Source: Candidatus Buchananbacteria bacterium (GTDB lineage: Bacteria; Patescibacteriota; Patescibacteriia; 2-01-FULL-39-33; JBAYJR01). Taken from it: a stretch of DNA of 60,814 nucleotides. The notes below the pieces were generated by a model. The model was not told the origin of the DNA and made no database searches. It saw only the letters and a program-made list of their open reading frames with translations. Position numbers and translations under genes: made by a program. Positions 21,025 to 60,814 of the stretch are shown in pieces; position 1 is the first letter of the stretch, and each line of letters opens with the position of its first letter. Location: contig JBAYJR010000001.1 of the NCBI GenBank assembly GCA_041665005.1, positions 70,727 through 131,540 of the forward strand. Reading direction: 5' to 3'.

Positions 21025-22830
21025 ATGACTGAAGAAATAGATCCAAAAATAACTACGGAAGCAACCGAGCGTTATCAACCAAAAGAAGATGACGTAACAG
21101 TTTTTGCGGAAACAAATTTTCGTAACCGTAAGGTAAAATTTGGCATTAAACGTCGCGACCGTCGCCAGCACATGTACGTAATTGGTAAAAGCGGTGTGGG
21201 TAAATCAACCATGTTAGAAAACATGATTGTTTCGGATATTATGCGCGGTGAAGGCGTAGCGGTGGTGGATCCGCACGGCGATTTGGCCGAAAAAATTATG
21301 CAATACATCCCATCTTGGCGGATTAATGACGTAGCCTATTTTAATCCCGCTGATTTGTCGTTTCCGGTGGCGTTTAATCCTTTAGAAAGCGTGGATGAAG
21401 CCCAAAAACATTTAGTGGCCTCGGGAGTGGTGGGAGTTTTTAAAAAAATCTTTGCGGAAAGTTGGGGCCCTCGTTTGGAATATTTATTGCGCAATGCTAT
21501 TTTAGCTTTATTAGATTACCCCGGTTCTACCTTGTTAGGGATTATGCGTATTTTAGTAGACAAAGGTTATCGAGCTAAAGTTTTAGAAAAAGTTAAAGAT
21601 CCGGTGGTTAAATCATTTTGGGTGGATGAATATGCTAAATATCCCGATCGTTTTCAGGTGGAGGCGGTAGCGCCAATTCAAAATAAAGTGGGTCAGTTTT
21701 TATCTAATTTTTTAATCCGTAATATTGTCGGTCAGGTTAAATCCACCATTGATATGCGGGATATTATGGATAACCGTAAAATTTTGGTGATTAATTTGGC
21801 CAAAGGCCGGATTGGCGAAGACACCACGGCGATGTTAGGGGCAATGTTGGTTACTAAAATTCAAATTGCGGCCATGGAGCGTATTCAAATCCCCGAAAAA
21901 GAACGCAAGGATTTTTATTTATATGTTGATGAATTTCAAAATTTTGCTACGGATAGTTTTGCCACGATTTTATCCGAAGCGCGTAAGTACCGTTTAAATT
22001 TAATAATCGCTCATCAATACATTGAACAGTTAAAAGAAGAAGTTTATTCGGCGGTTTTTGGTAATGTTGGCACTTTGGTTTGTTTTCGGGTGGGTCCAGC
22101 GGATGCGGAAAAATTAATCACGGAATTTTCGCCAATTTTTATTGAAGAGGATTTAGTTAATTTAACTAAGTATGATATTTATTTAAGATTGCTAATTGAC
22201 GGGGTGGCCTCAGACCCTTTTTCGGCGACCACTTTGCCACCGTTGAGTGATGATTTAAAAGCGGGTAATCTTGATAAAATAATTAAAATTTCGCGTGAAC
22301 GTTATGCTGTCCCGCGAGAAGTAATTGAAGAAAAGATTTCGCGTTGGACTAGTATTAAAGATGAAACTTCAGTCAGCCGGCCGGCTAACGCTAGTTACAG
22401 TAAAGAATCAAATTTTAATCAAAAAGCTAAAGCGGCGGTAGCGGGAGTTGGTAGTGATTCAGAAATTAAGACCGCGTTTAAAACAGTTTGTAGTTTGTGC
22501 GGTAAAGAAACCGAGGTTTATTTTGCACCGGATGGAGTGAGACCGGTTTATTGTAAGGATTGTTTAAAAAAGACCCGTGAAGAAAAAATTGCCAAAGCCA
22601 AACTGCCGACGGCTAGCGATCGACCAAGGGTTGGACCAGCCTCGCCCAAGGCAATTAGTTTAAACGAGGCCGTCCAAAAACCGCCAGTTAATTTTGCGCC
22701 CAGTCAGCCCGAACCAGCAGTTAAAGCTCAACCATTAACAGCACCAGAGATTATTAAGGAGCAGTCAGTTGATGATAATTTTACAGCGAAAGCAAAAAAA
22801 ATAGTTTCCGGTCAAACCGTTAAGTTTTAA
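21025..22830 (+). CDS. VirD4/TraD/HerA-like coupling ATPase with C-terminal CxxC-x17-CxxC domain
   Basis: Walker A GKSGVGKS, DPHGD, Walker B LYVDEFQN, ILSEARKY; CSLCGKETEVYFAPDGVRPVYCKDC. Confidence 0.88.
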   Translation: MTEEIDPKITTEATERYQPKEDDVTVFAETNFRNRKVKFGIKRRDRRQHMYVIGKSGVGKSTMLENMIVSDIMRGEGVAVVDPHGDLAEKIMQYIPSWRINDVAYFNPADLSFPVAFNPLESVDEAQKHLVASGVVGVFKKIFAESWGPRLEYLLRNAILALLDYPGSTLLGIMRILVDKGYRAKVLEKVKDPVVKSFWVDEYAKYPDRFQVEAVAPIQNKVGQFLSNFLIRNIVGQVKSTIDMRDIMDNRKILVINLAKGRIGEDTTAMLGAMLVTKIQIAAMERIQIPEKERKDFYLYVDEFQNFATDSFATILSEARKYRLNLIIAHQYIEQLKEEVYSAVFGNVGTLVCFRVGPADAEKLITEFSPIFIEEDLVNLTKYDIYLRLLIDGVASDPFSATTLPPLSDDLKAGNLDKIIKISRERYAVPREVIEEKISRWTSIKDETSVSRPANASYSKESNFNQKAKAAVAGVGSDSEIKTAFKTVCSLCGKETEVYFAPDGVRPVYCKDCLKKTREEKIAKAKLPTASDRPRVGPASPKAISLNEAVQKPPVNFAPSQPEPAVKAQPLTAPEIIKEQSVDDNFTAKAKKIVSGQTVKF

Positions 22831-54621: not shown

Positions 54622-54924
54622 GTTGTATTCTGTTCGGTCATTATTCGTTATGGTGCTTGAGTAATGTAGAAGAGGCAACTTAGTCCTGTACCCTGGTTGG
54701 CCTATAGGATGAAGCGAAGACAACTCACCCAGCCTTTAGGGGGAAATTATAAAGGATATATCTAACTGATTAGGCTTAATTAGTTAGAAAGAAACGATCA
54801 TAAGCTTACCCGGCCTTTAGGGGGAAGCCATAAAGGATATGTCACCGGAGAGTGGTTCACCGGTGAAAGAAACTATGAACCTAAGCCTCCGATAAAAATT
54901 AATTTTTTATCGGGGGTTATTTTA
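54622..54924 (+). ncRNA. unidentified tandem-module structured RNA (~300 nt)
   Basis: Two ~75-nt modules 81 nt apart with conserved CCTTTA-GGGGGAA-TAAAGG-ATAT and AAGAAAC, and a sequence-variable hairpin. Confidence 0.65.
54886..54924 (+). terminator. intrinsic terminator closing the RNA
   Basis: CCTCCGATAAAAA/TTTTTATCGGGGG then TTATTTT. Confidence 0.78.
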
Positions 54925-56318: not shown

Positions 56319-56432
56319 AAATTATTAGTAAGACGCTAAAAGGCGGCTGAAAAATCAGTCGCTTTTAGTTTGGAGTTGATCAAATTAATTAAGCTTGCTA
56401 TAATTGTTTTAACCAAGCGGAATTTATTTTTT

Positions 56433-57110: not shown

Positions 57111-57182
57111 TTTAGCAGCAAAGATTTGACAAAGTTTTTTGGTATGTGCTAAAGTAAAAATACCTTAACAATTACAACATTA

Positions 57183-57480
57183 ATGAGCAGGAATAGTAGG
57201 GAACGAGTTCGGTTTTAGCGAGCCAAGGTAGTTGCAAGCTTGGTACTAGAACGTTCTTGAACGCGCCTGTGAAATGACCTCGTGAATTAATTCAATAGCG
57301 GGGCCCGGCGGCGTCCGTAATCATGCGCTAACTGATGTCGTTTGGTTTTTAGAGCCAAAGCCTGAGTCAGTGAAAGTGATTAATCAATTCTTGGATTGGT
57401 TAATAACCGAGGTGGTACCGCGGGGTTAACTCCCGTCCTCTGTTGGCATTTTTTGCCAGTAGAGGACGGGATTTTTTATT
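57183..57480 (+). promoter_or_regulatory. T-box riboswitch, specifier CGC (Arg)
   Basis: GA motif AGGAATAGTAG, AGCGAG, GTTGCAA, GAA-CGC-G at 57259-57265, T-box GGTGGTACCGCG at 57411-57422, terminator TCCCGTCCTCT/AGAGGACGGGA+T6. Confidence 0.9.
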
Positions 57481-57510: not shown

Positions 57511-58101
57511 ATGAGATTAACCAGTTTTCAGTTAAGGTCAATTCAAAGAAGTGAAATTGATTTTTTGTTAAAGCCGTTAGCGGTTGATATGACTACCGGG
57601 GTTTTACGCCAAAGGACCAGAGAGGAATTAATTGAATTGTTGCCAAGTCTTCAAATTTTTTGGGATCAGGGCAAGTTAGTTGGTATGGTTGCTTTGACAA
57701 AATATGATTGGTGTAGTGAATTATCTCTGCTTTGGGTAGCGCCTAATTATCGCCAGCTTGGTTTAGGTCGGGAGTTGGTGGCTCAAGCTTTTTTTACCGC
57801 TCAGGAGCTTGCTGAAAATTTAATTTTTATTTGCACCGTTTCGCCAACTAAAGTAAATTGGTTTAAAGCATTAGGTTTTCATGAAGCCTCAGCTTCAGCA
57901 GTGCCGGATAAAAAGTGGCAAAATTATCCCGCTAATCGTCAGCCGATAGTTATGCTACAAGAAGTTTCTCATTATCTTAAGCAGTTCTGTTGCTGTCGGG
58001 AATGCGCTGGCCGGGGATGGGAATTTGCTGATCGTTGGGATAAAGTTGATTGTCCGCTGTGTTGCGGTACTGGTTATGAAAATGAACTGCTAAAAAAATA
58101 A
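57511..58101 (+). CDS. GNAT acetyltransferase, ArgA C-domain-like, with C-terminal Cys-rich finger
   Basis: GVLRQRT, LVGMVAL, ELSLLWVAPNYRQLGLG, FKALGF, VPDKKWQNY; CRECAGRG...CPLCCGTG. Confidence 0.78.
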   Translation: MRLTSFQLRSIQRSEIDFLLKPLAVDMTTGVLRQRTREELIELLPSLQIFWDQGKLVGMVALTKYDWCSELSLLWVAPNYRQLGLGRELVAQAFFTAQELAENLIFICTVSPTKVNWFKALGFHEASASAVPDKKWQNYPANRQPIVMLQEVSHYLKQFCCCRECAGRGWEFADRWDKVDCPLCCGTGYENELLKK

Positions 58102-58893: not shown

Positions 58894-58930
58894 AAAAACC
58901 AGAGAATTTAATTCTCTGGTTTATTTTTTT
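58894..58930. terminator. bidirectional terminator
   Basis: AAAACCAGAGAAT/ATTCTCTGGTTT flanked by A- and T-runs. Confidence 0.78.
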
Positions 58931-59067
58931 GGGTCTTTTATTGGGTGCTGATTGGCCGGTACTGGCCTTAACTCATCTGGGTTGGTTACTCCAGAGCAGC
59001 TTTTGGGTTCTGTTCCGGTTTGTTTGTTTAATTTTTCTATTGCCAAGATGTAATCCGTAGTTAACAT
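58921..59067 (-). CDS. small orphan ORF, 48 aa (not in ORF track)
   Basis: AGGAGG then ATG: MLTTDYILAIEKLNKQTGTEPKSCSGVTNPDELRPVPANQHPIKDPKK; stop codon lies in the terminator. Confidence 0.5.
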   Translation of the reverse strand: MLTTDYILAIEKLNKQTGTEPKSCSGVTNPDELRPVPANQHPIKDPKK

Positions 59068-59164
59068 AAGCTCCTCCTATCTAAAAAATATAGCAAATTA
59101 TTATAAATAAATCAAGCAGTTTAAATTTTTGTTAATTTGGCTTAGGCTTGCATATTCAGTAAAT

Positions 59165-59520
59165 AAAAAAAGGAAGATCACTTGTTGGATCTTCCTTGAT
59201 AAATCGGGCAGGGAAGCCCTGAAACCGTATAGCACCGGATGTCTCCGTACTATTCCGGGGTCACTAATGGCCGTCCGGTCTTCCACTTGTTGACCGTAAT
59301 TTCTGGTCAACTTCGACTCCGACTAGCGGCTGATAAATCAGCCCCGTTCCACTAAACAGTTAGCTAATCATCAAAGTCTTCCGAATTGCTGTGCGTCACC
59401 ATTAGCCTTCAATAGGCATTGGAGCGGGGGACTTGAACCCCCACCATTTTTTTAAAAAAAGAAGTGGTTTTGGTCTGTTTTCAAAAGAGCAATTTGGCTG
59501 CGCCTGCCTCCATATCCCTG
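59165..59520 (-). ncRNA. unidentified structured RNA (~350 nt)
   Basis: Promoter TTGACA-N16-TAATAT (59556-59529); several perfect helices; terminator AGGAAGATC/GATCTTCCT+T7. Confidence 0.6.
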
Positions 59521-59632
59521 TTGCTAGTATATTAGCAGAAGATTAGTTTTTGTCAAGAGAATTTAAGGGGTTGTAAAATGATTAGATTAGGGTTATCATA
59601 TAATGTAATAGCAAGTAAAATTATTATTGTAT

Positions 59633-60520
59633 ATGAATAAATTAAAAATATTGAATGCGGTTTATTGTGATCCGAATAATCACAATCATGGTTATAACGC
59701 TACCGCCATATTAAACAAAATATTAAACGGAAACAAATTATATGTAGCAGGATACCCCGGGTCTTACAATGCTTTGTTTAAAAGTTACGATTCTGCTTTT
59801 AATGACCCGGCGCTAGGAACACCAAAAATTTTAGAAATTAAACTGAATTTTGGATGGAAAGTCTATGAAAAAACTTATAAAGAAGATCAAATAATCAACT
59901 TATTCGATGATTTGGTAGTTGGTAGTAAGAGGTTTGAGTGGAATCGGTTTATTCGTAACCAGTGGGTGGTTGCAATAGGTAGCGGCATAGTTGTTGTTAT
60001 ATTCGGTTATTTTTTTAGCGATAGCAGTCTATTTCAATTTAAAAACAGTAATATAGGACAAATGTCTATTGGGAGCGGCGATAATGTCGCTGGAGATAAA
60101 ATTACTTATTTATCAACATCAACGTCCTCGGTCAACGTTGACAAAGAGTACTCGAATATTAGTCCTCAAGAGATAATAAATATTATTAATAAACAACCGA
60201 ACTCTGCTCTGAAGCAAGAATTTTTTGATAAATACTACAAAGGCAAGAGAGTATCATGGCTGGGAACAGTGGCGGATGTAAAAAATTCTATGACGTTAAG
60301 AGCGTCATCGACAGAATTATTAATATATTTCTATCAGCCGTTCTCAGTAACCTTTAATAGTTTAGATATTCAAGGTCCAAAATTTAATGATCTTAAAACA
60401 TTAGATCAGAGTAATAAAGTACAACTAGTTATTCGGGGAAAAATTGATAGGATTAGTGATATTGGCGGCCGTTTTGATCATTTTTTCATAATTGCCGAGG
60501 ACTATGATTTTGTTAAGTAG
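59633..60520 (+). CDS. single-TM hypothetical protein, AT-rich; N-domain possibly SUEL/DUF3395-like
   Basis: ILNAVY...NATAIL...NDPALGTPKILEI pattern; TM at about residues 110-130. Confidence 0.55.
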   Translation: MNKLKILNAVYCDPNNHNHGYNATAILNKILNGNKLYVAGYPGSYNALFKSYDSAFNDPALGTPKILEIKLNFGWKVYEKTYKEDQIINLFDDLVVGSKRFEWNRFIRNQWVVAIGSGIVVVIFGYFFSDSSLFQFKNSNIGQMSIGSGDNVAGDKITYLSTSTSSVNVDKEYSNISPQEIINIINKQPNSALKQEFFDKYYKGKRVSWLGTVADVKNSMTLRASSTELLIYFYQPFSVTFNSLDIQGPKFNDLKTLDQSNKVQLVIRGKIDRISDIGGRFDHFFIIAEDYDFVK

Positions 60521-60814
60521 CTAATCATTCTTCAACGGATGAAACTTTTTATGCGTTTCTTGGGCATATTTATCTGAGGCATGAACATACCTGGTGGTGG
60601 TATCTAGCGATTCGTGACCAAGCAAAATCTGAATCGCCGCGGGATTGGCGCCGCCTTCGGCTAGGTAAGTGGCAAAGCCGTGGCGTAAAGAGTGCGCCGA
60701 GAGGGGAACAGTGATATCTAATTTTTCCCGGTAGTGTTTAATACGCTCCTGCAAATAATTGGTGGAGATTTTTTTATTTTTATCGCTGGCGTTTAAACCG
60801 CGCAGGGGAATAAA
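60521..60814 (-). CDS. tyrosine recombinase/integrase, C-terminal part (5' truncated by window)
   Basis: HSLRHGFAT, LLGHESLDTTTRY (H-x-x-R, H, Y); frame open to the window end. Confidence 0.93.
   Translation of the reverse strand, partial: FIPLRGLNASDKNKKISTNYLQERIKHYREKLDITVPLSAHSLRHGFATYLAEGGANPAAIQILLGHESLDTTTRYVHASDKYAQETHKKFHPLKND

Follow-up and report, generated by a model that had tools for sequence, protein, structure and literature searches.

A putative tRNA-Leu 3'-end fragment within a GC-rich, ORF-free promoter-to-terminator unit near a tyrosine recombinase gene of a Candidatus Buchananbacteria bacterium

Orphan large bacterial non-coding RNAs (ncRNAs) have been found as GC-rich intergenic regions, using the GC-IGR approach (PMC6429828, PMC8632094). 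The window analysed here, a stretch of 60,814 nt from a Candidatus Buchananbacteria bacterium, contains a region of this kind close to its right end: an ORF-free, GC-rich unit of ~355 nt on the minus strand (59165-59522), which runs from a promoter to a terminator and carries the T-arm of a tRNA. Is this unit a new RNA, a form of a known RNA such as permuted tmRNA, or the trace of another event at this locus? Like raiA, ROOL, GOLLD and OLE, it is a long GC-rich intergenic region without an ORF in an AT-rich genome, and many helices are predicted for it. However, raiA, ROOL, GOLLD and OLE have conserved, covarying structures in many genomes, whereas the unit is a single sequence without a relative in the collections searched. 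An earlier interpretation, made from the letters of the DNA and referred to here as the sequence-only reading, had described it as a novel or highly diverged large structured ncRNA that is reminiscent of permuted tmRNA. The first part of this description is unproven, and the second is considered at the end of the alternatives.

The unit is predicted to be transcribed from a sigma-70-type promoter, TTGACA-16-(TG)TAATAT, located at 59556..59529 on the minus strand. With 10 of the 12 consensus bases and an extended -10 element (TG present), it was the top-scoring promoter-like site of the region, and transcription would start near 59522-59525. The first ~80 nt of the transcript (59446..59522) are AU-rich, of low complexity and not tRNA-like; they hold a GGCAGG strand (59503-59508) and a U7/A7 palindrome. 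This segment is followed at 59417..59447 by a variable-region end (GGU), the T-arm GGGGG-UUCAAGU-CCCCC and GCUCCA-A. The T-arm together with GCUCCA (GGGGGTTCAAGTCCCCCGCTCCA, 59442-59420) occurs only once in the window. Next comes a body of ~220 nt (59198..59416, GC content 0.505), and the unit is closed by an intrinsic terminator (59163..59197, core 59197..59170) with a 10-bp stem, AAGGAAGAUC-8 nt-GAUCUUCCUU, and a U-run. The GC content was 0.505 at 59200-59399 compared to 0.29-0.38 in the flanks and 0.379 in the whole window. No ORF was found in the unit with either code 11 or code 25. The promoter, the GC-rich non-coding body in AT-rich surroundings, the T-arm followed by GCTCCA and the strong terminator had all been listed in the sequence-only reading, and all of them were recovered.

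Known RNA families were searched with Rfam 15. At the gathering score, the whole window yielded only a T-box leader (57174-57443) and nothing for the unit. When the cutoff was relaxed to E<=10 for positions 59000-59700, three chance-level matches appeared: a terminator look-alike on the plus strand, the bare T-arm (mascRNA, 14 bits) and a small hairpin. The models for RNase P, SRP, 6S, riboswitches and group I/II introns remained silent at this cutoff in the same interval; the sequence-only reading had already noted that RNase P and SRP signatures are absent. Two RNase P-like motifs seen by eye, GGAAGACCGG and ACGGAGACAUCCGG, were rejected, given their spacing of 26 nt and the lack of even a weak match to any RNase P model. 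ARAGORN in default mode reported no tRNA or tmRNA anywhere in the window, and at thresholds of 90, 80 and 70% it reported nothing on the minus strand of the unit. As proposed from the sequence, the unit thus matches no catalogued RNA family.

The T-arm was the only part of the unit that matched other DNA in a blastn search of phage and plasmid records: positions 59408-59444 matched tRNA-Leu genes in phages. The reference tRNA-Leu(UAA) of Synechococcus phage S-SM2 (found by ARAGORN; Rfam tRNA model 57.9 bits) ends with ...CGUGGGGGUUCAAGUCCCCCCGCUCCUA. The corresponding segment of the window, ...UGGUGGGGGUUCAAGUCCCCCGCUCCAA, is identical to it through the T-arm and CGCUCC, minus one C, and hence the acceptor strand of the fragment is one C shorter than that of a real tRNA-Leu. 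When the 85 nt upstream of the fragment were compared to the 5' two thirds of tRNA-Leu(UAA), 430 of 2000 shuffled sequences did as well, and neither ARAGORN nor the Rfam model RF00005 found a complete tRNA cloverleaf in the unit. Since the T-arm matches a tRNA-Leu end, the upstream sequence is not tRNA-like and no tRNA was detected, the segment is a 3'-end fragment of class-II tRNA-Leu type, neither a tRNA nor a purpose-built acceptor arm. What lies at 59417-59447 is an isolated tRNA 3' end, from the T-arm to the discriminator, as in an att remnant. The exact 23-mer of T-arm and GCTCCA was found in no tRNA gene of ~185,000 GTDB species representatives, so that no source tRNA could be assigned to the fragment; the pattern had two matches in these genomes, both unrelated and tRNA-fragment-like. 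Within the body, further copies of the tRNA end did not exceed chance: the best inverted copy was UGGAaCGGGG (10 nt, 1 mismatch; at least as good in 359 of 2000 shuffles), and the best direct copy was a 6-mer, for which shuffles did equally well.

It should be noted that in the record of phage S-SM2 (GU071095.1) the annotated tRNA-Leu (22365-22448) is displaced downstream by ~55 nt; according to both ARAGORN and the Rfam tRNA model, the real gene spans 22309-22394.

The fold of the unit was predicted with a free energy of -125.3 kcal/mol (z -4.55), and none of 100 shuffled sequences was as stable. The plus strand of the same stretch was nearly as stable (-120.4 kcal/mol, z -4.20). Since this stability comes largely from palindromes, fold scores decide neither the working strand nor function at the RNA level, and the helices described here are those that the RNA would be expected to form. 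Their probabilities were taken from the thermodynamic ensemble of the full transcript. The T hairpin of 8 bp, GGUGGGGG/CCCCCGCU, would form with a probability of ~1, the helix GGCAGG/CCUGCC (59503-59508 and 59207-59212), which closes the ends of the unit, with 0.98, the terminator helix with 0.97 and the hairpin GGCUGA/UCAGCC with 0.96. In the body, GCCU/AGGC and a long hairpin, AUAGUAC-GGA/UCC-GUGCUAU, are favoured, together with a three-way junction in which GAUUAGC/GCUAGUC closes CUGUUU/GAACGG and GGCUGA/UCAGCC; AAUUGCU/AGCAAUU is also among the favoured helices. The complementary segments named in the sequence-only reading are all present, but the ensemble favours only some of them. The end-closing helix and the hairpin GGCTGAT/ATCAGCC held up. 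The hairpin GUUGACC/GGUCAAC forms in a sub-fold but reaches only 0.07 in the full transcript; CCGGA/UCCGG has a probability of 0, and AUAGUAC/GUGCUAU (0.90) takes its place. The long-range helix CUAAUGG/CCAUUAG is disfavoured (0.02).

Two further hairpins were observed in this context. When read on the plus strand, the T-arm hairpin and the ACCATTTTTTT behind it (59426-59452) score as an intrinsic terminator, which could halt antisense or read-through transcription coming from the left. A hairpin resembling GGCUGAU..AUCAGCC at 56343-56358 is another terminator-like hairpin.

On its right side, the unit is flanked by the gene for a membrane protein of 295 aa (59633..60520, plus strand), which is divergent from the RNA, convergent with the recombinase gene and not syntenic in relatives. 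Its promoter-like site, TTGTCA-18-TAAAAT (59550..59579, plus strand), overlaps the -35 element of the RNA promoter, and the two have their -35 bases at 59550-59556 in common (TTGACAA / TTGTCAA); judging from this overlap, they could be mutually exclusive. The 295-aa protein has a lectin-like N-terminal domain, one TM helix and an OB-like C-terminal domain. A full HMMER scan found 12 distant relatives (best E 2.6e-13), in which the N-terminal domain shared with it matches the DnaJ-like_C11_C / SUEL-lectin models; two of the 12 carry a C-terminal tRNA_anti-like OB fold. The apparent ORFan is probably best described as a lectin-TM-OB membrane protein. Neither this protein nor the GNAT protein encoded further to the left has a close homologue among 5.8 billion proteins. 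The integrase that had been noted nearby is a tyrosine recombinase, of which the C-terminal 97 aa lie in the window (60521..60814, minus strand, cut by the window end), ~1.1 kb from the T-arm fragment. Downstream of the RNA, a 48-aa ORF (58921..59067, minus strand) has an AGGAGG ribosome-binding site and a promoter-like site at 59115..59087; no family was found for it. The neighbouring proteins carry no defence-system or phage annotation, and no replication or relaxase gene was found near the unit.

Five relatives have a common gene order at this locus: LigB/Memo, a gene of ~450 aa, WecG, GltX, M23 peptidase and a small Cys-rich ORF, followed by zero to two variable genes, an Xer-like tyrosine recombinase (minus strand), an FtsQ-like gene and SerRS. 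In the window, 6.6 kb separate the M23 gene (end 53931) from the recombinase gene (60521 onward), and the genes in between differ from those of the relatives. They are DUF4202/HD, another RNA candidate, ArsR-SdpI and a transglutaminase-like protein, followed by the T-box-controlled GNAT, NUDIX, the 48-aa ORF, the RNA and the 295-aa gene. Neither a tRNA, nor an Rfam family, nor an RNA of this kind was found in the loci of the five relatives, and nhmmer with the unit returned nothing there.

The interval between M23 and the recombinase is a variable spot, the cargo of which differs per relative (none, an unknown protein of 284-328 aa, or a 142-aa gene together with an AttH-like gene). The Cys-rich ORF of 35-72 aa (MDKC.KC..P...), which directly follows M23 in all relatives, is absent from the window. 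In some Patescibacteria, WecG and GltX form a single fusion protein of 733-747 aa; the other relatives, like the window, encode them by adjacent, separate genes.

The C-terminus of the recombinase (97 aa) is 31-34% identical to the Xer proteins of the relatives, compared to 70-86% among these proteins themselves. We used GltX as a yardstick, for which the values are 54-57% between the window and the relatives and 60-76% among the relatives. At such comparable GltX distances, the low identity suggests that the recombinase is probably not an orthologue of Xer, and by the same sequence comparison it is probably a different, element-type enzyme. However, it is located and oriented just like the Xer of the relatives, and it could be a fast-evolving orthologue. 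Among viral contigs, the fragment of the recombinase had relatives at 33-37% identity only.

Relatives of the unit itself were searched in larger collections, which were covered by exact patterns only, a weak approach for an isolated lineage. In JGI metagenomes, the pattern of a T-loop, NNN and GCTCCA, then 60-90 nt, then GGGGCTG gave three chance matches in high-GC DNA, and a second pattern gave none. Four pattern scans of viral contigs found only chance matches in phage coding DNA, and blastn against phage and plasmid records gave nothing beyond the tRNA-Leu match described above. The lineage is indeed isolated: only two GltX proteins, both from contigs of 3-4 kb, come close to its own (72% and 65% identity), and all others reach at most 57%. 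The organisms named for the GltX matches agree with an assignment to Candidatus Buchananbacteria. Because of this isolation and the exact patterns, the missing homologues are weak evidence. One DNA run contains the stretch in identical form at a depth of ~9; no RNA run containing it was found. Within the window, the hairpins and arms of the unit are not repeated elsewhere, and the motif GGCAGGCG is not enriched.

Islands that target tRNA genes have the order tRNA, then element, then a distal repeat of the tRNA end. The tyrosine integrases of islands and prophages reportedly duplicate tRNA 3' ends as attL and attR, with one class of crossover reaching from the T-loop to the 3' end. When a tRNA 3' end stands alone and a tyrosine recombinase gene is found 1.1 kb away on its 5' flank, the simplest interpretation is therefore the distal direct repeat. 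We infer that the fragment is of att origin, and we consider the best explanation of the whole unit, with a probability of roughly 40%, to be a duplicated tRNA-Leu 3' end that borders a small integrase element and is fused to an orphan structured RNA body. According to this explanation, the ~30 nt at 59417-59447 would be a duplicated and slightly decayed 3' end of class-II tRNA-Leu type (T-arm, acceptor 3' strand, A73), left behind by a small element with a tyrosine recombinase as the attR-type, distal copy of its attachment site. Located 5' of the fragment (rightward in window coordinates), the element would carry the recombinase and 295-aa genes and include the promoters that lie back to back at 59529-59579, and the order would run tRNA, recombinase, cargo, repeat. 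This explanation predicts that an intact tRNA-Leu gene lies upstream of the recombinase gene, shortly after the window ends; this gene and the partner repeat would be located to the right of 60814, outside the window analysed.

Two origins would then be conceivable for the GC-rich body (59198-59416) and the terminator, namely the old 3' trailer of that tRNA gene and an independent RNA; in both cases, transcription would now start at the strong border promoter of the element. The resulting transcript of ~355 nt would be closed by the GGCAGG/CCUGCC helix. Its T-arm would form no aminoacylatable tRNA-like domain and would act at most as a stable hairpin or processing handle; that the body is a stable trans-acting RNA is a guess. 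RNAs derived from tRNA trailers exist, 3'ETS-leuZ of E. coli being one. Like such trailers, the unit has a structured, ORF-free RNA directly 3' of a tRNA(-like) end, closed by a terminator; unlike them, it has no intact tRNA upstream.

Several features of the locus agree with the att origin. As in attL/attR duplications, an isolated fragment of ~30 nt, composed of T-arm, acceptor 3' strand and discriminator, lies near a tyrosine recombinase gene located on its 5' side, and the surrounding genes are non-syntenic in relatives. The 3' end of the fragment faces the side opposite to the recombinase and 295-aa genes, the conserved locus of the relatives lacks the RNA, and the recombinase is unlike their Xer. 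The fragment differs from such duplications in being one nucleotide short, in having its partner repeat and intact tRNA outside the window, and in lying inside a unit that runs from promoter to terminator and has a structured, GC-rich tail. Furthermore, the segment of 54-60.8 kb shows no compositional anomaly, no tRNA gene exists at the locus of the relatives, the recombinase is placed and oriented like Xer, and the exact 23-mer is missing from the tRNA genes of the GTDB representatives, all of which argues against an att remnant. The composite nature of the unit is supported by the bracketing promoter and terminator, the GC island, the lack of an ORF and the fold z-score. Nevertheless, the plus strand folds almost equally well, and, as no homologue was found in the collections searched, the body may be no functional RNA. 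In practical terms, the T-arm, a tRNA-Leu-type fragment, is a probable border marker of a small integrase element.

The same unit could also be a single lineage-specific structured ncRNA with the T-arm hairpin as an integral module, and we regard this as somewhat doubtful. In this case, the T-arm could imitate a tRNA or serve as a handle for enzymes that bind tRNA, or it could be a processing signal at which the GC-rich body is released. The whole unit has a single promoter and a single terminator at its ends, its 5' and 3' ends are predicted to pair, it forms a GC island within an AT-rich genome, and a T-arm of perfect consensus amid sequence that is not tRNA-like could mean selective retention. 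Against this, neither a homologue nor covariation was found in the collections searched, the opening 80 nt have an AU-rich, low-complexity sequence, the opposite strand forms equally good hairpins, and the location is a non-conserved interval. A more specific proposal is decidedly unlikely: that the ~355-nt transcript is one lineage-specific RNA with a captured T-arm as working module, and belongs to uncatalogued, fast-evolving RNA genes of 300-450 nt in Buchananbacteria-like Patescibacteria. The captured T-arm might, for example, be a handle for tRNA-processing or -modifying enzymes that mature or stabilise the GC-rich body. If the body is a functional RNA, the number of uncatalogued large RNAs in candidate-phyla-radiation (CPR) bacteria would rise by one; the tiny genomes of these bacteria seem rich in genes for such RNAs, none with a known function.

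It is unlikely, in our view, that the unit is no functional RNA at all and consists of decaying recombination debris, composed of a tRNA fragment and hairpin-rich filler, with a promoter and terminator that are fortuitous or serve the neighbouring genes. The lack of detectable relatives and the equal folding of both strands fit this assumption, and promoter-like sites are common in the AT-rich DNA of this region (10 found compared to 3.5 expected). However, a near-consensus promoter with an extended -10 element and a strong terminator bracket the GC island exactly, and none of the hairpins recurs in the window, which argues against a dispersed repeat. Under mutation pressure towards AT, moreover, GC-rich hairpins should be lost over time unless they arose recently or are maintained by selection.

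Two other explanations are considerably weaker. It is very improbable that the unit is a long cis-regulatory leader (a riboswitch-like attenuator) of the 48-aa ORF, even though both are on the same strand and the terminator lies ~100 nt upstream of this ORF with its good ribosome-binding site. The ORF has a promoter-like site of its own between the terminator and the start codon, 330 nt far exceed known aptamers, no anti-terminator alternative is evident, and Rfam gave no match. Equally hard to accept is an element that acts as DNA and not as RNA, i.e., a recombination site or a cluster of hairpins of the single-strand origin type. Many stems are perfect palindromes, fold scores are equal on the two strands and a recombinase gene is 1 kb away, but no replication or relaxase gene is nearby, the arms are not repeated elsewhere in the window, and the bracketing by promoter and terminator would be left unexplained.

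The idea that the unit is a circularly permuted (two-piece) tmRNA, or a tmRNA-like tRNA mimic, is close to refuted. It had been suggested by the T-arm followed by GCUCCA and by GGGGCUGAUU, 74 nt downstream, which could provide a G3:U70 pair. In two-piece tmRNAs (Rfam RF01849-RF01851; PMC11915505), the T-arm and the 3' strand of the acceptor likewise precede a GGGGCUG-type segment, and a G:U at the third pair is possible in the unit. However, tmRNA curation demands an acceptor stem of 7 bp and a valid tag frame (PMC11915505), whereas the unit offers only 5 bp (GCUCC/GGGGC), with an ensemble probability of 0. The GGGGCUG segment is locked in the perfect hairpin GGCUGA/UCAGCC, which uses the same bases as the proposed acceptor. 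None of the reading frames, all of which were read, encodes a tag-like peptide with a hydrophobic or Ala end, and the unit has no encoded CCA, no pseudoknots and no smpB nearby. No tmRNA family responded at E<=10, ARAGORN was empty on this strand even at 70%, and the signature of T-arm, gap and GGGGCUG met only chance matches in the JGI metagenomes. The sequence-only reading had cautioned that the acceptor is 2 nt short and that no tag ORF ends in Ala-Ala; these two caveats proved correct, and the proposed resemblance to permuted tmRNA with a G3-U70-like pair had to be abandoned. The main value of the analysis is thus negative and practical, in that a tempting permuted-tmRNA reading appears to be wrong.

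The interval to the left of the unit contains a second ORF-free candidate RNA (54622-54924, plus strand), which also runs from a promoter to a terminator and consists of two tandem modules; the module CCyrGCCUUUAGGGGGAA...AUAAAGGAUAU is present twice. It matches no Rfam family, neither at the gathering score nor at E<=5, and has no sequence similarity to the RNA at 59165-59522. The T-box leader found by Rfam is on the plus strand, full-length (117 bits) and located directly upstream of a lone GNAT acetyltransferase gene (57511-58101, plus strand); GNAT as T-box cargo is unusual in a CPR genome.
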